NCBI GenBank assembly: GCA_000004695.1
Contig: CM000151.3
Location: 6,944,001 to 7,008,000 of the forward strand
Direction: 5' to 3'
Length of the DNA stretch: 64,000 nucleotides
Origin: Dictyostelium discoideum
Lineage: Eukaryota
Part shown: one piece after another, positions 44,936 to 59,576 of the stretch
How the letters are laid out: each line of letters opens with the position of its first letter
How positions within the stretch are numbered: position 1 is the first letter of the stretch
Notes under the pieces: generated by a model
Database searches by the model: none
Seen by the model: only the letters and a program-made list of their open reading frames with translations
Told to the model about the DNA's origin: nothing
Made by a program: the position numbers and the translations under genes

Positions 44936-46122
44936 ATGGCAACAAGAGATAGAACACCATCATATCTTTTATTAAAAATCGAATATAACAATAGAAGACC
45001 CATTAACCATAAGAAATCAACATCAAATTATGAAACATTAGATGAAGAGAATAGAAATGGTATGATACCATTAGTATCATTAAACAATAATAATTATAAA
45101 AATGGCGCAAATATTGATACTAGTCCAAAATTACAACAATTAAATGTAATACCTGCGTGGATGCAAAGAATAAATGATATAGATGTAAATCTATCAAAAA
45201 TTCATTCTCAAAGTAAGTTTTTTTTTTTTTTATTTTTTTAATTTTTATTTTTTTTTTTTTTATTTCCTAAACTATACATATTAATTTTTTTTATTTTTTA
45301 TTTTTTTTTTAATAATAATAATAAATAGTTGAAAAATTAAAAGGATATCATGATAAAAATTTATTACCAGATATGAGTTTGGAAGATCAATCAGATTTAG
45401 AAAGATCAATTGAAATTACTACTTCTGAAACTACAAGAGTATTTATTTTTAAAATAATAAAAAAAAAAAAAAAAAAAAACTAATTTTTTATATATTTTTA
45501 GTTATTCCATAAAACACATGATATGATAATAAATTTAGGTGGTGATAAAGGTACAATTTTTACATCAGAAGATATAAAGATTAAAAAAAATGTACAACAA
45601 TCGAAATCAGCGAAATTACAATCATTATCAGTATTATTTAGACGAAAACAAAGTAATTATTTAAAAGCATTAAGAAAAAGGTCAAATTCATTTACAGATT
45701 TATATAATAAAAGTGGACTTGCTAAAGAAGAAGAAGAAGAAGAAGGAGAAGGAGAAGAGGAAAATCAACTTTGGCAAGAAATCGAATTCGATTTTACAAA
45801 TGAACAAAAACAAATAGTCAAATTAATGGAAATTGAAATTTCATCAAGAGATAAAGAAATTAGAAATCTACTTGAATCAATCAATGATTTAACTCGATTA
45901 TTTCAAGATATAAGTTTATTAGTTGCTCAACAAGGTACTATATTAGATAGAATAGATTATAATTTAAATGAAACCGAGTCAATGGTAACTGACGCAACAG
46001 ATGTAGTTATTATAATAAATAAAAAGCATAAAGAATATAGATCAAGATTATGTATATTAATGGTTTTAGTTGCTTTAGTTGTTTCAATGATTTTCATTAT
46101 TATTTTAAAAATGGTATTCTAA
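44936..46122 (+). CDS. Syntaxin-16/Tlg2-like Qa-SNARE, copy 1 of a tandem array. It has 3 exons.
   Basis: Exons are 44936..45212, 45329..45438 and 45502..46122, with GTAAGT/GTATTT donors. It has an N-peptide MATRDRTPSYLLLK, consistent with an SM-protein/Vps45-binding motif. The SNARE motif is RDKEIRNLLESINDLTRLFQDISLLVAQQGTILDRIDYNLNETESMV, with a zero-layer Q. There is a C-terminal TM helix (LCILMVLVALVVSMIFIIIL). Confidence 0.85.
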
Positions 46123-46869: not shown

Positions 46870-48122
46870 ATGGCAACAAGAGACATAACATCATCATATA
46901 TTTTATCAAGAACAGAATGTAAAAATCGTGCAAAAATAATAAATAGTGCAATTAATATTAATATTAAAAAATCAGGATCAGGTTATAAAAGATTAGAAGA
47001 AGAGAATTATCAAGATATTGATATTGATAATAATAATAATAATAATAATATAAATAATAATAATATAAATAATAATGACAATGATAATGATACTACTAAT
47101 AATATAAAGAACAGTAATAATAATAATGATATACAATTAAATATACTCGATACTGAAATAAATATAGAACAATTAAATTCATTACCACCATGGATTCTAA
47201 AATTAAATGATATAGATGAGAATATTAAAAAAATTATATCATTAAGTATGTCTTTTTTTTTTTTTATCATCATCCCATTTTAAAAAAAATAATTATTAAT
47301 TAAAAAAAAAAAAAAAATAAAGTTGAAAAATTTAAAAAATATTTAAAAGAAGATATTGATAAAATTTTAGCAGAAGATATTGAAATGGAAAGTAGAATTG
47401 ATTGTGAAAGATCAATTGAACTTTTAACGATGGAAACAATTAGATTATTTCATAAAACATTTGATATGATAAAGTATTTAAATAAAAGTAATAATTCAAG
47501 TCAAGGTGAAAATAAAATGAAAAAGAATACACAGAGAATGAAATCTGCAAAATTAAAAGCATTATTAATAACATTCAAACATATTCAAAGGTCATATTTA
47601 GCATTGTTAAAGAAAGTATCAAGTTTACAACGGAGTTTATCTTCATCATTTTTATATAGAAGTGGTGAATATGATGTAAATAATGATAATGAAGATTATG
47701 GTGAGAATAGTAGTATTAGCAATTCACATTATCTTCAACATCATCACAACAACAACCACCACCATGAAGATGATCATGATCATGAGGAAGATCATGAAGA
47801 GATTATGGATGAATTAAATGAAATGGCAACTACATTAATTGAAAGACAAAGAGTATCTCAATTAATTAAAGAAACTTCTCATTTAATTCAAGACGTTGGC
47901 TCAATGTGTGTAAAAAAAGATTCAATTTTTGATAGAATAGATTACAATTTAGCTGAAGGTGAAGAATTAGAATTTAATGGTACTATTTTAATTTGTGATG
48001 GTATTACTAATGGTTATGAAAGACCAGAAAATGAAAAAAGAAAAAAATTATTATTGATTTTTGCTGTTTTAATCATAGTAATATTGTTCATATTTATTTT
48101 AAAATATGTAATTGAAATTTAA
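46870..48122 (+). CDS. Divergent syntaxin-16-like paralog, copy 2. It has 2 exons. The exon 2/3 intron is lost, a His/acidic insertion is present and the zero-layer Gln is replaced.
   Basis: Exon 1 is 46870..47245 with a GTATGT donor. Exon 2 is 47323..48122. It has an N-peptide MATRDITSSYILSR. The region homologous to copies 1 and 3 (..SIELLTMETIRLFHKTFDMIKYL..) is continuous here, so the intron is absent. There is an insertion ..HYLQHHHNNNHHHEDDHDHEEDHEE... The SNARE core is IQDVGSMCVKKDSIFDRIDYNL, compared with LVAQQGTILDRIDYNL in copy 1. The TM tail is LLLIFAVLIIVILFIFIL. Confidence 0.75.
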
Positions 48123-49305: not shown

Positions 49306-50463
49306 ATGGCAACAAGAGATAGAACCCCTTCATTTAATTTAATAAAATCAGAATACAAGAATAGAAGACCCTCAAGACACTATGGTAATGAATCAGATGA
49401 AGATAGTAATAATGTACCATTAGTATCTCTTAATAGAGCTGGAAATAATATTCATAATAACAATAATAATGACCTTAATTTACAAAAATTAAATGTATTA
49501 CCAGCATGGATGCAAAGAGTTAATGATATAGATGTAAACTTAACAAAAATTTCACAACAAAGTAAGTAATATATTCTTCTTCTTTTTTTTTTTTATTCAT
49601 TCATTCATTTATTTAAAATATTTAACCTAAAAAGATAAAATTATTAACAACAACAACAACAACAACAACAATAATAATACATAATAATAATAATAATAAA
49701 TAGTTGAAAAATTAAAAGGATATCATGATAAAAATTTATTACCAGATATGAGTATGGAAGATCAATCGGATTTAGAAAGATCAATTGAAATTACAACTGC
49801 TGAAACTACAAGAGTATTTATCAACATATTATTATTAATAAAATAATTAAATAATAAAAATACTAACATTATTAATATTTTTAGTTATTTCATAAAACAC
49901 ATGATATGATAAAAAATTTAGGTGGTAAAGGTACAATATTATCAGCAGAAGATATGAAAATGAAAAAGAATATACAATCAAGTAAATCAGCAAAATTACA
50001 ATCACTTTCATTATCATTTAGACAAAAACAAAGAACTTATTTAACAGCATTACAAAAAAGGTCAAATTCATTTTCAGATTTGTATAATGACCAAAATGAT
50101 GATGATGATGGTGAAAATGCAATCGATTTAGATTTTACAGATGAATTAAAACAAGTTGTAAATGCAATGGAAGAAGAAATCACTCAAAGAGATAAAGAAA
50201 TTAGAAAAATCGTTGCATCAATCAATGATTTATCTCATTTATTCCAAGATATAAGTGTATTGGTTGTTCAACAAGGTACTTTATTAGATAGAATAGATTA
50301 TAATTTAAATCAAACTGAAGCATATACTCAAGAAGCAGTCGTTGAAATTGATGAAACAAATAAAATACATAAAGAATATAGAACTAGATTATGTATATTA
50401 ATGATTTTAGTTGCTTTGGTTGTTGCAATGGTTTTCATATTTATTCTTAGATTCATTTTTTAA
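49306..50463 (+). CDS. Syntaxin-16/Tlg2-like Qa-SNARE, copy 3. It has 3 exons and is closely related to copy 1.
   Basis: Exons are 49306..49561, 49704..49813 and 49885..50463. A TACTAAC branch site sits at 49861-49867. It has an N-peptide MATRDRTPSFNLIK. The SNARE motif is RDKEIRKIVASINDLSHLFQDISVLVVQQGTLLDRIDYNLNQTE. The TM tail is LCILMILVALVVAMVFIFIL. Exon 2 is the same length (110 nt) as in copy 1. Confidence 0.85.
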
Positions 50464-50953: not shown

Positions 50954-53355
50954 TTATTGAGTTTGTGGTCTACTATTATTACTACTATTACTCATATTTA
51001 ATTGATGTAAAGAAGAAACGCTATTTCTAAAAGCCATACCAGAACTTTGATTTAATGAATTATTTGTTGAATTTGAACCATTTACAATTGTTTTCAAGTT
51101 AATATTTTCATTTCTTAGATAAGAATTTTCTGATTGAAGAACATCCAATTGAGTTTGAAGTTTAGAAACCAAATTTGGATCGGTTGGAGATAAAACTTGA
51201 CCATTACTAGTATTGAGAAGGTTTTGTTGTTGAAGCCAATTGGTGAGTGTGGATATCTTATCTTCAAGATAGGAAATATGAGTTGCTTGGGAGTCGAGTT
51301 TTGATTGAATTTTATTATTCTTTCTACCACTGGTACCTCTACTACTCTTTTTATATTTTGAAGATTTATAATCTCTATCTCTACTTCTGTCTCTACTTCT
51401 ATCAGAATCAGATGATCTATCTCTGGATTTATTTCTACTATCACGACTTCTACTTCTTCTTCTGTTGGAATGACTTCTTGAACGATCTCTACTTCTATCC
51501 CTACTATCAGAATCTCTACTTCTTGAACGATCTCTGCTTCTATCTCTACTTCTATCTCTATCCCTTTCTCTACTTCTATCTCTTGAACGATCTCTACTTC
51601 TATCTCTATCTCTTGAACGATCTCTACTTCTATCTCTTTCTCTATCTCTACTTCTATCTCTTGAACGATCTCTACTTCTGTCTCTATCTCTTTCTCTGTC
51701 TCTATCTCTTTCCCTTTCTCTTTCTCTATCTCTGTCTCTTGAACGATTATGTCTATCTCTTTCTCTTTCTCTGTCTCTACTAACATTTCTACTTCTAGAG
51801 TTTTTATAGGTTTTATTAGAACGATCACGGTCACGTTCACGTTCACGATCTCTTTTACTATTGCTACTACTGCTACTGCTCTTTTTCTTTTTATAAGATT
51901 TTCTATCACTTTCATATCTACTAGAGTGTTCATCAGAGCTCGAAGTATGAGAGGTTGAATCTGAACTCTCTGATAAAGAGGAGGCTCTTGATGATTGTCT
52001 AGATTTTGATTTATTTGATTTACTGGTAGAGTTATTTTCTTTATCGGAAGATGGAGATGGGGGTTTTGATAGAGCACTACCCGATGCAGATATTAATTCT
52101 CTATTGTATGCGCCATTACTACTAATACTACTATTATTACTATTTATCATAGCTGGATCTTGTTGTTGTTGTGGTATTTGTTGTTGATGTTGTAATGGTG
52201 ATTTTGGTGAGGTTGTAACCAATGATGGAATATTACCATGAGATGAAGAGGATGGTATACTACCTTCTTTCTTTGGTGAGGTTTTTGGTGGAGTTATTAA
52301 ATCAGATTGATTTAATTTAACAATATTTATAGCGTTGATCGGACTTGGAGTTTTAATTGGTTGTTGTAGTTGATGTTGTTGTTGTGGTGGTTGTAAGGTT
52401 TGAGGTTGTTGAGTGTTATTTACAACAGTTGTTGATGCTGCTGAAGATGTTGGGTGAATTGAACTATGTGCTAAACCATGAACATTACTATGTGCGCTTG
52501 CACCCAAATTACTACTGGCGTTATGGTTCGGTATACTTCCAGATGAATGGGATAAATGATGATGTTGTTGTTGTTGGTGATAAGCAGCTGCAGTAACTGG
52601 AATAGCTGTTGGTAAGGTTAATGGTACAACTGGTGGAGGAACGACAGTCGATGATGATCCAAGTGCTGTATGATTACTTGTTGGTGTAGATGTTCTACTA
52701 TGACTTGGTGTTGAACCTGGTGATGTTGATGGTGTGTGTGATGGCGTTTCAAATGGTGATTGAGTTAAATTTTCTTTAGTTTTATTATTATTATTATTAT
52801 TATTATTTGATGGATTTGTAGTTGTAGTTGTAGTTGTTGTAGTTGTAGTTGATGAATTATTATTATCATTATTTTCATTTGGAAATATCCATTCATCAGC
52901 TGAATTACTATGACCAGTATCAAATTGTGGTGAAGAAGTATTTCTAAGCATAGCAAATGAATCTTCGGATAACATTTGATATCTTTGACCTAATGGTGGT
53001 AATTTTGCCAAAATATGTTGAACTAAATAATCTGGTTTCTTTGCTTGCTTAAAGAATCTATGTTCTAAAAGTTTTGAAGGTAATGGTCTTTTAGATGGAT
53101 CCTTTTGAAGACATTTTTCAACTAAATCTTTAAAACTATGAGACCATTTACTTTCGCCATCCCCCTCCAATGATGGTGGTGGGTTTTGAAGTGTCAATAA
53201 TAAAACTTTCATTGGTGGATATTCTGCAAAAGGTGCCTTACCTCTTGCAAGTTCTAATGCTGTAATACCAAATGACCAAATATCAACTGCATAATCATAA
53301 TTAACTTGTTCCATAATTTCCTAAATTTTTTAAAAAAAATAAAATAAAATAATTA

Positions 53356-53398
<43 letters not shown>

Positions 53399-54137
53399 AT
53401 TTAAAATTTAAACTTACAGGTGCCATCCAACAAGGTGTACCAACAAAAGTATTTCTACTTGTTTCACCAGTATCAATTAATGTTGCACTAACACCAAAAT
53501 CACTTAATTGAATGTTACCATTTGAATCGATTAAAATATTACCAGATTTAATATCTCTATGAATTCTGCCAGTTTTATGAAAATAGCAAATTGCTTTCAA
53601 AGCTTCTTTGAGGATAGTGGCGATAACATGTTCTTCAAAACCTTGAGGGAATGAAAATCTCATGATATCAGAGCATGAGCCAGCTGATAAAAAATCCATA
53701 ATTACCCATAGTGACTCGTTATATACAAAACTTGTGTGGTATGCAACTACATTTGGATGATGACAAAGACTCATTGCCTGTATTTCCTTTCTAATCTCTT
53801 CTAATGATACGTTTTTACAATGCTCTAAATCTATAATCTTTATAGCTACATTCTCTTGAAATGGTAAACATATTGCACGTTGTACTAATCCGCTTCCACC
53901 TTTACCAATGGTTTCCTTAAGTTCATATTGATCTGCTGAATTTGGGTAATTTTTTCTTGGTTTTGGTGTTATTGGAGATGCTGCCGTTGTTGTTGTTGAC
54001 GTTGTTGTTGTTGTTGTTGTCATGGAGGAGGATGAAGCTAATGTCGATGATGATGATAATGCTGCTGCTGTACTTTGCTTTGAATCTATATGATGCTTAT
54101 CATGATGTTTATCATGATGATATTTATCATCGGACAT
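50954..54137 (-). CDS. STE20-family OSR1/SPAK (Fray)-like Ser/Thr kinase with a long C-terminal extension. The extension contains an RS/RD/RE dipeptide-repeat (SR-protein-like) domain and a terminal coiled coil. It has 2 exons.
   Basis: Exon 1 is 54137..53418 (...YELKETIGKGGSGLVQRAICLPFQENVAIKIIDLEHC...HRDIKSGNILIDSNGNIQLSDFGVSATL..TFVGTPCWMAP) with a GTAAGT donor. Exon 2 is 53320..50954 ([52 protein letters not shown]...). This follows the OXSR1 kinase domain nearly residue by residue, and a PF1-like ..SADEWIFPNE.. segment follows it. About 180 aa of SRDRSRDRSRDRERDR... repeats follow (nt about 51300-51800), then LDSQATHISYLEDKISTLTNWLQQQNL..LQTQLDVLQSENSYLRNENINLKTI. The antisense/alternative-frame ORFs at 51115..52077 and 51247..51958 are repeat artefacts. 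Confidence 0.9.
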
Positions 54138-54845
54138 TTCTAAATGTACTTTTTATATATATATTTTCTTTTCTATCTATTTTATTAAATTAATAAAAGT
54201 GGAGTTTTTTTCTTCTTAAAAAAAAAAAAACTGCTATTTACTTATATTAAAAAAAACAAATTGTGTTGCAGTTTTTTTTTTTTGGTTTATTTTAATTTTT
54301 TTTTTTTCTATCCAAAAAAAAAAAAAATATATATTTTTGACTTGGTCTTAATTTCTCCTCTTTTAAATTTAATTTGTTGGGTAAAAAAAAAAAAAAAAAA
54401 AATGAAAAATTGATATTAGATAAATATTTTTAAATATAAAAATACAAACAAATTTTTAAATAAATAAAAAATTTGATTTTTCGATAAGTTTAGGTTTTTT
54501 ATATGTGTATTTGTGTGAGAAAATGGTGTGTTTGTAAATATTTATGTTTTTTTTTATTTTTTTCAAAATAAACCCATAAAAAAAATAATTTAAAAAAAAA
54601 AATAAAAAAAATAAAAAAAAATAAAATTTTTTTAAAAAAAAAAAAAAAAAAAACAAATGAAAACACGAACAAGGCCAACCCACTTTTTTTTTAAAATAAA
54701 ATATTAATTAATATGAAAGATTTTTTTTTTTTAAAGTTTAGGGTTGTGACTACTAAAAATAACTTTATAGTTTTATATGAAAATTTTTGTATCTGTGTTA
54801 TAAATTCTGAAAAATGTGAAACTGACAACTTTTTTTTTTTTTAAA

Positions 54846-54905
<60 letters not shown>

Positions 54906-55403
54906 CAATAAAATTAATTTTACAATTGTAATAATATGTGTAACATACACAAATTGATGATGAAATGGTTGTACCTTATTATTATTATTATTAATACTAC
55001 TGTTTATCCTGGTATTTTTTTTTTTTTTTTGTTTTTGTTTTTTTTGTTTTTTTAATTTTGTTTTTTGTTTTAAAATTATTTTTTAGGAAACAAGAAAATA
55101 AAAAAAAAAAAAAAAATGAAAAAATGAGATAACAAAGTGGATTATATAGGTATTATAAATTTGGAATTGAATGATCGCATTGTCAATCTAAAATAATAAT
55201 AAAACAATTTTTTTTTTTTTTTTTTTTAAATTACCAACAATAACAACAAATGAATGAGCTATTGTTTCTTTTTTTTTTTTCGTTTGTTTATATTTCTTTT
55301 TCCTTTCCACCTCTATTGTTTATGTTGGTGTTATCACTAATTTAATTTTATTATTATTATTATTATTGTTATTATTATTATAATATTATTAATTATTGTT
55401 GTG

Positions 55404-55435
<32 letters not shown>

Positions 55436-55741
55436 TAATAGTACAAATTTTTTTAAAAAAAAAATAAATATTTATAAATAAATAATATAGGATAAACAAT
55501 AATAAATATAGGAAAGAAAAAAAAAAAAATAAATAAACACTATTGATATATTTTATGGTGGCTTTTTATTATTTAATATTATTATTATTATTTGTTTTAT
55601 TATTTATTATTTTTATTATTATTATTATTATTTGTTTAATTATTTTATTATTTTTTTTAACTCCTATATTTTTAATGGATTGGAAAGATAGGGGGTGAAA
55701 GGAAAAAAAATAAAAAAATTTAATTTTTTTTTTTAAAGATA

Positions 55742-55772
<31 letters not shown>

Positions 55773-58700
55773 CCAATTTGTGTAATATTACTACTATAAT
55801 AAACTTTGATTAATTGGTAAGGTAAAAACTATAGATAGTTTCAAAAAAAAGAAAAATTAAATTTTAAAATAAAAATAAAAAAAATTTTACATTTGTGTAT
55901 TTTTTAAAATTTTTTAATATATACAAAAAACAAAAAACAAAACCCAAAAAAAAAAAAGTTTAATTTGGAAACATAAAACAAAACATTATATCAGTGTGTG
56001 GTGTGGGGTTGTGTGCACAATAAAAAAAAAACAAAATAAAACAAAAAATAAATAAATAAATAAATAAATAAAAAACAAAGAAAAACTTTTTTTGGTGTGC
56101 GCGTGCGAAATGAAATATACTCTGGTCATTAAGAAAAAAAAAGGAAAAAATGAAATAAAATATAATGAAAATTTTTGAAATAAATAATTTATTATTACTT
56201 TTTATTATAAATATAAATAATTATTTGTTTTTATATTTTTCAAAATAAAAATAAAAATAATAAAAAAATAAAATAAAAAAAAAAAGCTGTGAATGGATAA
56301 AAACTGTTTTGGTTTTGGTTTTTTTTTTTTTGGTTTTGGTTTTAGTTTTTTTTTTTTTTTTTTTGATGATAAAAATCCAATTCAAATAAAAAAAAAAACT
56401 TTTGGATGATCGACTATTATCGAAATTCAGATTATATTGAGTGATTATTATTATTAAAAATAAAAAGAAAAAAAAGAAAAAGGCATTCTTTATTATTATT
56501 ATAATTGAAAATAGTATTAAATTATTACTTTTCTATTTTATTTTGTTTTATTTTGTTTTGTTTTTTTTTTTATTATTTTTTTATTTTATTTTTTTAGAGA
56601 ACTGCATCTGTTTTTTTTTTACTTTTTATACATACTAAATAAATAAAATAAATATTGTTGGTGTTTTTAATAAAAAAACTAACCTTATATGTTCATTTAA
56701 AATTTTTTATTATTATTTTTTTTTTTAAGCACAAAAGTGGAAAAAAAAAAAAAAAAAAAAAAAAAACCAAAAAAATAAAATAATTAAAAAAAAATAATAA
56801 AATAAATAAATAAAAAATAAAAACAAATAAAATAAAAAATGTATGTAAAAAAAAAGTGTCAAAAAAAATTTAACCACTGTTTAAACGATAAGAAAAAAGA
56901 AATCATATACACACACAAAGTAGTTATATAAAATTGGATTATTATAAAAACATTAAAATATTAAAATTTATCATTTATTATATTTTTATTTTGGACTCGA
57001 CATATTCCAAAAAAATTTTAATAGTGGAATTCAAGACAATATTATTTAATTATTTAAACCTACTAATTATAATAAAAAAATTGAAATAATGATTATATGT
57101 GTATGTATCACTGATACTGTTTAAAACATTTAACAAATTAAATTGGTAATTATTCTCCTATATATATACACTAATATTATTATTATTATTTTTTTTTTTT
57201 TTTGCGTGTTGTTTTACATTTAATTAAAAAAAAAAAAAAGAAAAAAAAAAAAAAAAAAAATAATAAAATAAATAAATAAATAAATAAAACAAATAAAATA
57301 AAAAATAGAAAAAAATAAATTAAATAATAATTCCAAGATGTATATTTTTTTTTTTTTATTTTTTTATTTATTTATTTATTTAAAAAATAAAGGGGAAAAA
57401 AAAAAAAAAAAAAATATAGGAAGGTGCACTGTTTAAATAATATAACCAAAAAAATAGATTATTTTTTTTTTTAAAAAAAAAAAATAAAATAAAATTAACT
57501 TAACTAAACAAGTAGATATTTAAAAAAGGAAAAATAAAAAAAAAAAATAAAAAATAAAAAATAATATCAACAAACTTTTTAAATTCAACAATAATTGACG
57601 AATAAAAACTATTGAAATTGAAGTAATCGAATTACCTTTTTAGTTGTTGCTTATGTATTTGTGTTTATAGTTTTATAAAACTATCCTCTTGTTGATATTT
57701 GTTAATTTATAATATATTAATGTGTATATAATAAATCTACAATTGATTTTTTTTTTTTTTCTTTTTTCTTTTTTTTTTTTGTTTTTTGTTTTGCTTTTTT
57801 TTTGTTTTTTTTTATTTATTTATTTATTTATTTAATGTTTATTTGGTGGAATTGATTTTCTTTGATTTAATAATTTTCTTTGACTAAATAAAATTATATT
57901 ATTACTATGGTTTTTATTATTTATGAGCTTATTGATCATTATACTCTATGATAAGGGGATTATGAAATGGAAAATTTTATGTGATTTTTATTTTGGAAAT
58001 TCTGGTAAAAAAAAAAAAAAAAATTTAAAAAAAAATATATAAAACTATATTCTTTTTTTTTTATGTTATTTATTTATTTGTTTTTTTTTTTTTTTTTTTT
58101 TTTATTAAATATATATAAAATAATATGTTATTTGTGAAAAAACAAATATATATAAAAAAAAAAGAAAGAGAAAAAAAAATTTTGAAGTGAGGAAAAGTAA
58201 AACTTTTTTTAAAAAAAAAAAAATAAAAAAAATAAAATTGTGAAAAAGCCGAAAGTTTTTTTTTATTTTTTTTTTTGGCTTGCTCGAAGAAATCAAAAAA
58301 AAATTTTTAGATATTTAAATTTATAAAGGGTCATTTTTTTTATTTTTTATTTTTTTATTTTTCATTTTTTTTATTTTTTTTTTTTTTGAGGATCGATTGG
58401 TTGCTCAATTATAATAATAGGAACATTGTAATAATAGTTATAAAAATAACCATTAACACCTGGTTAATAATAAAACAAAAAAATTAAATTCTCTTTTTTA
58501 TTTTTTTATTATTTTTTTTTTTTTTTTGGGGTTTTTTTTTTTTTTTTTTTAAAAATTATTAAATCATCAAAACCCAAATTTATGTTAGTCTTTTGGAATT
58601 AATTTTATTTTTTTATTCAAATAAAACTATTTTTTTTTTTTCCAAAGAATTTGGTTAACTATTTCTGAAAAAAAAAAAAAAAATTTTTTATTCATTTTTT

Positions 58701-58802
58701 TTATATCTACCTGGTCCATAAAAAAAAAAAAAAAAAAAAAAAACCAAATATATAAAGAAGTTTGTATTTGATAAAGTCAAAAAGTCTAAAATACAAACTT
58801 AC

Positions 58803-58840
<38 letters not shown>

Positions 58841-59132
58841 AAATCAAAAATAAAAAATAAAAAAAAAAAAAAAAAAAAAAAGATTGAATCCAGGAGGGCT
58901 GGTAAAAAATCAAAAACCAGTCTTTTTTATTTTTATTTTTAAACTTTTTTTTATTTTGGGCATCAACAACTTTTATCCGTAACAACGAATTTTATCATTG
59001 CAACCTTTGGAAGCACATTGCCCACCTTTTTCTGTTATTTTAATAATAATTAATAAAAAAAAAAAAAAAAAAAATTAGTTTTTTAAGTTGTTTGGATTCA
59101 TTATTTTTATTATTATTTATTTATTTATTTAT

Positions 59133-59576
59133 TTAATAATTACCTAAATATTGTTGATGTTCAGTTTCAGCAGGATAAAATACACCAGCTGGTAAAATTT
59201 CAGTTGAGATTGGATCTTTATATTTTAATTGTTCTTTTTCTTTACTTGCAATTGCTTCATTCTTTTGTTCTTCATTATGATAATAAATACCAGATCTATA
59301 TTGTGTACCTACATCATTACCTTGACGATTTAATGTTGTTGGATCATGTTTAGACCAAAATAAACCTAACAATTGATTGTATGTGACTTTTTCAGGATCA
59401 TATTCCAATTCAACTGCTTCAGCACATCCAGTTTTACCACTACAAACTTGTCTATAGGTTGGATTCTCTACAGTACCGTTAGTATAACCAACTCTTGTTT
59501 TTGTAACACCTGCTACTCTTTGAAATAATAATTCAACAGACCAAAAACATCCTGCTGCAAATGTTGCTTTTGTCAT
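59133..59576 (-). CDS. msrA: Peptide methionine sulfoxide reductase MsrA. It has a single exon.
   Basis: The sequence is [34 protein letters not shown]...[52 protein letters not shown]...[11 protein letters not shown]. The active-site GCFWS motif is present and the fold is conserved throughout. Confidence 0.9.

Follow-up and report, generated by a model that had tools for sequence, protein, structure and literature searches.

The 64-kb window analysed here, a single stretch of 64,000 nucleotides, carries on its minus strand a two-exon gene for a STE20-group protein kinase of the FRAY family, the family of SPAK and OSR1. Its product couples a Fray-type kinase domain and PF1 segment to a long disordered linker, an arginine-enriched mixed-charge domain of alternating RD, RS and RE dipeptides, and a leucine zipper; no conserved C-terminal domain (CCT, or PF2) was found in it. 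What might such a combination do? We propose that the zipper dimerises the kinase and that the arginine-rich domain would bring it to speckle-like nuclear bodies. For this explanation as a whole we put the probability at roughly 0.45.

Gene structure and identity

The gene is, with very little doubt, the catalogued but unstudied Dictyostelium discoideum GCK-VI/FRAY STE20 kinase DDB0229911, with the anatomy set out below. Residues 1-400 match DDB0229911 at full identity over the 400 amino acids that its entry shows (PMC1420674, supplementary file 6). The window is therefore D. discoideum DNA, and the span that an earlier reading of this DNA (the original prediction) had taken for the kinase locus, 50954..53320 on the minus strand, is exactly exon 2 of the DDB0229911 gene. 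As a description of exon 2 that span is correct. It carries the kinase C-lobe alone, and the N-lobe and N-terminus sit in exon 1, outside its coordinates.

53418..54137, minus strand: exon 1, residues 1-240 (H/K/S/T-rich N-terminus, kinase N-lobe and activation loop to WMAP), from the list of open reading frames and the sequence
53321..53417, minus strand: the sole intron, 97 nt, GTAAGT...TTTAG, 3% GC
50954..53320, minus strand: exon 2, residues 241-1028 and the TAA stop

Joining 54137..53418 to 53320..50954 on the minus strand yields a protein of 1028 residues. At the splice junction WMAP is followed by EIMEQV, as in the published protein, and the D. purpureum orthologue has a 68-nt intron at the identical position. 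Read as separate open reading frames (ORFs), the same DNA gives a minus-strand ORF at 53301..54137, which encodes the kinase N-lobe and then junk past TPCWMAP, and a second at 50954..53314, which opens inside the kinase C-lobe. From splice acceptor to TAA, 788 codons run uninterrupted. Across the 64-kb window, GC content is 8-15% in intergenic and 30-40% in coding DNA.

The gene is presumably the one that UniProt and dictyBase name fray2 (DDB_G0276577), and the borrowed label "kinase fray2" on many plant database proteins is consistent with this. DDB0229911 is classed as STE / STE20 / FRAY and active ('a') in the Dictyostelium kinome supplement, and both Dictyostelium FRAY kinases are termed uncharacterized in the kinome paper (PMC1420674). 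A literature search for fray2 and DDB_G0276577 found no later paper on the protein. The new element is thus not the gene, which was already catalogued, but an arginine mixed-charge domain on a GCK-VI kinase.

A Fray-type kinase without a CCT domain

53051..53951, minus strand, intron included: protein kinase domain, residues 63-330; Pfam Pkinase, 1.6e-60 over residues 71-330
53448..53450, minus strand: T-loop Thr230, aligned to SPAK (RNTFVGTPCWMAPE versus RKTFVGTPCWMAPE)
52871..53050, minus strand: PF1-like extension, residues 331-390, from the SPAK alignment and conserved motifs
52931..52936, minus strand: candidate S-motif, Ser369/Ser370, aligned with the family motif
52883..52891, minus strand: W-x-F motif, W384-I-F386, aligned with the family motif
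51857..52870, minus strand: S/T/N/P/Q-rich linker, residues 391-728 (338 aa), with no Pfam match

Behind an H/K/S/T-rich stretch (residues 1-62) lies a kinase that is predicted to be active because its catalytic motifs, namely the VAIK lysine, HRDIKSGN, DFG and GTPCWMAPE, are all intact. The original prediction called the kinase and PF1 orthodox Fray/OSR1, and so they are: the PDB search ranks SPAK (4.5e-101, 342 bits) and OSR1 (3.8e-97, 329 bits) first, with MST3 at 7e-73 (249 bits), and the SPAK alignment extends through PF1 as far as residue 356. In SPAK and OSR1 the threonine equivalent to Thr230 is the activating residue phosphorylated by WNK. The motifs AK..DY....L..LPPL..R and W-x-F are near-invariant among 121 relatives. 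By its closeness to SPAK/OSR1, these motifs, Thr230 and Ser369/370, the kinase and PF1 portion belongs by sequence to FRAY.

Is there a CCT domain beyond PF1? The domain scan that the original prediction had proposed, with Pfam OSR1_C (PF12202), gives no match at E<=10 in the full protein, linker or tail. A custom hidden Markov model (HMM) built from four holozoan CCT domains and run at E<=10 against 269 sequences detects a CCT in 12 of them, and in none of the proteins of D. discoideum, D. purpureum or P0001, a more distant dictyostelid orthologue. Profile comparison of the tail with CCT by hhalign reaches a probability of 1.8%. Foldseek with the tail model returns generic helical hairpins alone, none at E<=0.001 and no CCT among them. 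AlphaFold predicts an all-helical tail without strands and a disordered linker, with a CCT fold in neither. A hidden CCT is rejected on the agreement of Pfam, the custom HMM, the profile comparison and the predicted structure of linker and tail. Neither a downstream CCT nor a cryptic intron removing the repeat, the two observations that the original prediction named as counter-evidence, was found.

Has the CCT been replaced, as that prediction held? The absence is correct, but replacement does not follow: only the 12 of 269 scanned sequences have a CCT, and the zipper is shared with CCT-less protist kinases. The relatives comprised the 120 best word-index matches and the 150 best representatives of an exhaustive search of 1.84 billion proteins. 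The closest are mostly CCT-less plant BLUS1-like and protist kinases, and the nearest non-dictyostelid relative, P0122, is 61% identical. In a neighbour-joining tree without bootstraps, the dictyostelid sequences fall among CCT-less protist sequences. The protein has the kinase, the PF1 with W-x-F, the C-terminal coiled coil and the lack of a CCT that mark this Fray-like group, and it lacks the group's GRFx[V/I] motif. The original prediction is thus partly supported, since it described the architecture correctly and read its evolution wrongly.

RFxV motifs are the ligands of CCT domains. One or two post-kinase RFx[V/I] motifs occur in 96 of the 150 closest relatives. No RFx[VI] was found anywhere in the D. 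discoideum protein or P0001, nor, by inspection, in the D. purpureum translation. Relative to its CCT-less relatives, the dictyostelid protein has lost the post-kinase GRFx[V/I] motif. The Dictyostelium kinome table gives Wnk = 0 and NRBP = 0 (PMC1420674; a 2006 catalogue). By that catalogue the upstream WNK of the SPAK/OSR1 group is lacking, and a CCT would therefore have no obvious partner in Dictyostelium.

Two further observations concern relatives. GRFx[V/I] and a leucine zipper occur together in 42 of the 150 representatives, and the GRFx[V/I]-bearing CCT-less set includes P0122, P0140, P0141, P0161, P0205, P0194, P0215, P0291 and P0383, with P0123, P0174 and P0243 from plants. Because RFxV is a CCT ligand and is carried here by CCT-less Fray-like kinases, this suggests that docking polarity may be reversed, the Fray-like kinase supplying the motif and WNK the CCT-like domain; a literature search found no paper describing reversed RFxV/CCT polarity. 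Another dictyostelid protein, P0358 (542 aa), is a probable orthologue of the second FRAY kinase, DDB0230012/fray1, and has no CCT, zipper or arginine-rich domain. On these sequences a CCT seems to be missing from both dictyostelid Fray lineages.

The linker that follows PF1 is fully disordered in the AlphaFold model (mean predicted local distance difference test score, pLDDT, of 47; zero secondary structure). A three-species alignment reveals conserved islands at residues 428-452, which are S/T-P rich, at 565-614 (PSPINAINIVKLN...PPKTSPK...TTSPKS) and at 657-705 (KPPSPSSDKE...SRQSSRASSLSE...SSSDEH).

The arginine-enriched mixed-charge domain

51371..51856, minus strand: arginine-enriched mixed-charge (RD/RS/RE) domain, residues 729-890, 162 aa

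The original prediction described about 180 residues of RS/RD repeat resembling the RS domains of splicing factors. The repeat is there, somewhat shorter at 162 residues. It consists of 43% R, 22% D, 20% S, 6% E and 2.5% K, and its dipeptides rank RD/DR (38%) over RS/SR (30%) over RE/ER (12%), the longest unbroken (R-x)n run being 78 residues. Net charge is +29, the charged fraction is 0.73 and net charge per residue is +0.18. Charges are exceptionally well mixed: kappa is 0.043, and none of 200 shuffles went lower than 0.063 (mean 0.132 +/- 0.03). An arginine adjoins 28 of the 32 serines. In composition the repeat comes closest to splicing and speckle proteins (CWC22, U1-70K, RBM39, NELF-E, SON, LUC7L, PRP38 and cyclin L), so the likeness to splicing factors holds at the level of composition, although "RS domain" is imprecise. 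Because RD outnumbers RS and Pfam finds no RRM, a classical RS domain or SR protein is rejected. Long, disordered, built on arginine and not lysine, alternating and well mixed, the repeat is compositionally an arginine-enriched mixed-charge domain.

How far does the domain extend among relatives? RS/RD/RE-type dipeptides per 60-residue window reach 59 in D. discoideum and 35 in P0001, and do not exceed 14 in 266 others. None of the 266 close non-dictyostelid relatives carries the arginine-rich repeat, which bears out the earlier remark that it is atypical for this kinase family. A homologue search with residues 332-1028 was dominated by RS/RD-rich splicing proteins and yielded one true orthologue, P0001. 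An exhaustive HMMER search of the 1.84 billion proteins with the full protein gave no further dictyostelid orthologue among the best 150, and a profile of the non-repetitive conserved islands matched only the truncated D. purpureum model. That model, NCBI DICPUDRAFT_57173 (GL871199.1, L001 3113..5880), stops at 349 aa, and the open frame runs about 550 codons further, through linker, RE/RD/RS domain and zipper.

The comparison with dictyostelid orthologues that the original prediction had suggested shows the repeat kept in frame in both other species. The whole architecture lies in one frame in D. purpureum (L001 3113..5880, 899 aa after intron removal; the continuous frame corresponding to exon 2 is L001 3847..5880) and in P0001. 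Across the three orthologues the repeat measures about 165, 125 and 70 residues, longest in D. discoideum and less than half as long in P0001, with its composition conserved; D. discoideum shows additional repeat blocks relative to D. purpureum. Between these two species synonymous divergence (dS) stays near 0.9 throughout the gene (about 0.92 in the repeat), and the ratio of non-synonymous to synonymous divergence (dN/dS) is 0.047 in the kinase, 0.043 in PF1, 0.27 in the linker, 0.18 in the repeat and 0.14 in the helices. Seen only in the three dictyostelid orthologues, the arginine-rich domain looks like a dictyostelid-specific gain, its age being judged from these three sequences.

At the DNA level the repeat has a GC content of 36.6%, typical of exons. 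Tandem Repeats Finder reports nested degenerate periods of 12, 24, 30, 48 and 78 nt at 67-81% match, including 3.5 copies of the 78-nt unit at 81%. Arg codons AGA and CGT and Ser codons AGY and TCN are all used, in D. discoideum and in D. purpureum. The evidence of the sequences is that the repeat is not a chance feature, because its kappa lies below all shuffles, it is retained in frame in two other dictyostelids and its dN/dS is 0.18.

The helical tail

51206..51331, minus strand: tail helix 1, residues 904-945, KIQSKLDSQATHISYLEDKISTLTNWLQQQNLL; AlphaFold H14-55 of the tail model, block pLDDT up to 95
51080..51178, minus strand: tail helix 2, residues 955-987, four-heptad leucine zipper; AlphaFold H65-97, pLDDT about 92
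50954..51079, minus strand: disordered S/N-rich C-terminus and stop, the last 41 residues; pLDDT <50 at tail-model residues 100-138

The leucine-zipper-like coiled coil of the original prediction is present, though it does not end the protein: 41 disordered residues, unconserved between orthologues, come after it. In helix 1, 21 residues are invariant among the three orthologues. Helix 2 has L961, L968, L975 and L982 at d positions and V958, L965, N972, N979 and V986 at a positions, with a hydrophobic a/d occupancy of 0.78. Leucine at d with asparagine at a is a GCN4-like signature, typical of parallel dimers. Pfam zipper matches fall below the curated cut-offs (bZIP_1, 13 bits against 27.6; TSC22, 11 bits, E 0.51, against 30; Shugoshin_N), so that bZIP or TSC22 membership is rejected and the zipper is a generic one.

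Is the coiled coil a substitute for the CCT? An hhalign comparison matches helix 2 to the terminal zipper of protist Fray-like kinases that have no CCT (87%, E 3.9e-6, 33 columns), and a Leu-heptad pattern lies within the last 120 aa of 51 of the 150 relatives. Because the zipper aligns with these protist tails, and plant tails are comparable by eye, the coiled coil is probably ancestral to this CCT-less branch and not a substitute for the CCT.

Proposed mechanism and alternatives

Why would a Fray-type kinase carry such a C-terminal half? Entry of pure RD repeats into nuclear speckles depends on length and on arginine and is strengthened by positive net charge, and RS tracts behave as phosphorylation-tunable versions of RD repeats (Greig et al., 10.1101/771592). 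Alternating patterning favours speckles and blocky patterning the nucleolus (Miyagi et al., PMC9324279). Our guess of speckle-like targeting was made because the domain is long, arginine-based, strictly alternating, net positive and tunable by serine phosphorylation. We propose that it would target the kinase to speckle-like nuclear bodies, as alternating RD and RS repeats do in human cells. If the 28 serines next to an arginine were phosphorylated, net charge per residue would drop from about +0.18 to below zero and the kinase would be released. The zipper would dimerise the kinase in parallel, which would allow Thr230 to be trans-autophosphorylated in an organism with no WNK in its published kinome. 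Ser369/370 may play a BLUS1-like role in relief of auto-inhibition, and the kinase would act on nuclear or RNA-processing substrates, not on ion cotransporters. This mechanism of localisation and dimerisation is argued by analogy, and we advance it tentatively, at odds a good way short of even. Rather unlikely in our estimate is a wider scenario, in which dictyostelids without WNK re-purposed a GCK-VI stress kinase, dropping RFxV/CCT docking and inserting a phospho-tunable arginine domain, to give a zipper-dimerised kinase in speckle-like RNA-processing condensates.

Several points weigh against the speckle-targeted dimer. The rules of speckle targeting derive from human cells and may not carry over. 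Pfam finds no RRM or other RNA-binding module in the protein, and it is an RNA-binding module that adds speckle specificity (Greig et al., 10.1101/771592). The repeat varies more than two-fold in length between species and has tandem DNA periodicity, both of which fit slippage-driven drift, and its dN/dS of 0.18 is biased downwards by alignment choice. As for the tail, the AlphaFold models rest on two-sequence alignments, and the monomer model folds the two helices as a hairpin, so that an intramolecular antiparallel arrangement is also possible. The similarity of the coiled coil to protist tails could be partly compositional.

The strongest competitor, improbable as we judge it, is that the arginine-rich stretch is a tolerated expansion by slippage or unequal exchange with no function of its own, appended to an ordinary cytoplasmic Fray-like kinase whose zipper is the sole functional C-terminal element. 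The nested 12-78-nt periods, the well-matched copies of the 78-nt unit, the extra blocks in D. discoideum and the short repeat of P0001 all fit such an origin, and homopolymer runs (T11, N8, Q-rich) abound elsewhere in the protein. Nevertheless, composition and strict alternation have been held in three species while synonymous sites came near saturation, and the use of both Arg and both Ser codon families in two species argues against a recent pure DNA expansion. A kappa under that of every shuffle speaks the same way, as does the absence of any comparable tract from the 266 non-dictyostelid relatives.

Less probable again is that the C-terminal half works in the cytoplasm as a regulatory or docking module in place of the missing CCT, or as an auto-inhibitor that folds back on the kinase and is relieved by phosphorylation. 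In plant BLUS1, also GCK-VI, the post-kinase segment is auto-inhibitory and is released by Ser348 phosphorylation (PMC8254492), and here a Ser-Ser pair (369/370) stands at the equivalent place, with several conserved S/T-P islands beyond it. Loss of the RFxV motifs that non-dictyostelid linkers have may also create a need for another docking device. Yet neither Pfam nor AlphaFold finds a fold or known motif in the linker, and the known alternating R/D/S tracts of such length belong to nuclear RNA-processing proteins and are not known in cytoplasmic docking. BLUS1 auto-inhibition, moreover, maps beside the kinase domain and not to a distal repeat.

That the repeat is intronic, or that a kinase and a downstream RS/coiled-coil gene are read as one ORF, as the 349-residue D. 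purpureum model and the out-of-frame and antisense ORFs across the repeat might suggest, can be dismissed, since a single 788-codon frame reaches from acceptor to TAA and recurs in D. purpureum and P0001, purifying selection acts along its whole length, no 60-nt window of exon 2 falls below 12% GC, no donor/acceptor pair bounds an AT-rich segment, and GC content stands at 36.6% in the repeat, 3% in the true intron and 5.6% in the 3' flank; GC profile, splice-site scan and conserved frame together reject cryptic intron and gene fusion alike.

Comparison with known systems

SPAK (STK39), OSR1 (OXSR1) and Drosophila Fray resemble the D. discoideum protein in the T-loop sequence round the activating threonine, in PF1, in the Ser-Ser of the S-motif and in W-x-F/W. 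They differ in having the CCT/PF2 and in the WNK that is missing from the Dictyostelium kinome. The post-kinase region here is about 640 residues long, and its mixed-charge domain and coiled coil have no counterpart in the animal kinases.

The plant BLUS1 family and the protist proteins P0122, P0140, P0141, P0161, P0205, P0291 and P0383 are closer, with 55-61% kinase identity, PF1, W-x-F and no CCT. The zipper of the protist members has the form DP..L..LQ.Q...L..EN..L..EN..LK and aligns with helix 2, and the plant members have two comparable C-terminal helices, as judged by eye only. These relatives lack the arginine-rich repeat, whereas the dictyostelid proteins lack RFx[V/I].

For the repeat itself, the likeness is to the speckle proteins U1-70K, NELF-E, CWC22, RBM39 and SON, which share alternating R-(D/E/S), a high charge fraction, low kappa and net positive charge; it is one of composition, not homology, and the kinase, unlike them, has no RRM. 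Among kinases, CLK1-4, PRP4K and CDK11 are splicing-linked enzymes that we take to be alike in their arginine-rich or RS domains. RS domains are documented for CDK12 and CDK13 (PMC3348076). The splicing-linked kinases belong to the CMGC group, whereas the D. discoideum protein is of the STE20 group, and no relevant report of a STE20 kinase with an RS domain emerged from a literature search.

The long TSC22D isoforms of the animal WNK pathway offer another parallel, a disordered region that ends in a short dimerising zipper, and the protist and plant relatives pair RFxV with a zipper just as TSC22D proteins do (PMC12266109). The tail of P0122 scores E 0.036 against Pfam TSC22, below threshold. 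The dictyostelid protein departs from TSC22D in having no R-phi motif and Pfam scores far under the cut-off.

Why does this gene matter? Work on SPAK/OSR1 places CCT-RFxV docking and WNK at the centre of the pathway, and here is a tractable model for the control and targeting of a Fray-type kinase without CCT, in an organism with neither WNK nor NRBP in its catalogued kinome. If speckle targeting proves true, the protein would, as far as our literature search shows, be the first of the STE20 group to bear such a module. It would also let the mixed-charge "speckle code" of human cells be tested in Amoebozoa. The wider scenario of re-purposing would link an osmotic/ionic-stress kinase lineage directly to the splicing machinery. 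On the practical side, the analysis corrects the idea of a "replaced" CCT, exposes the truncated D. purpureum model and warns of the false ORFs that the repeat makes.

Spurious reading frames and genomic neighbourhood

Three such ORFs cross the repeat. The original prediction had noted long spurious antisense frames, and the two on the plus strand are real.

51247..51783, plus strand: spurious ORF across the repeat, 178 aa
51749..51958, plus strand: spurious ORF across the repeat, 69 aa
51115..52077, sense (minus) strand: out-of-frame ORF, 320 aa

Rich in Y/L/F or in E/I/V, these ORFs are by-products of the AGA/GAT/AGT codon periodicity. An equivalent out-of-frame ORF is found in D. purpureum (L001 5081..5653).

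The kinase gene has the following neighbours.

59133..59576, minus strand: peptide methionine sulfoxide reductase (msrA) ORF, upstream of the kinase gene on the same strand
54200..59100, between msrA and the kinase gene: about 5 kb at 11-17% GC, with no ORF >=70 aa and no tRNA
45523..46122, 46870..48122 and 49306..50463, plus strand: three tandem paralogous syntaxin-like t-SNARE genes, directly 3' of the kinase gene on the opposite strand

In P0001 the gene model joins msrA and the kinase into one, and the msrA-fray2 neighbourhood is therefore conserved in another dictyostelid. We take the intergenic stretch of about 5 kb to be unusually long for this compact genome. The second and third t-SNARE genes open with a MATRD... 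first exon, and in the first gene the SNARE exon alone was seen. All three have a ...KSAKL...DRIDYNL... SNARE exon that ends in a transmembrane helix.

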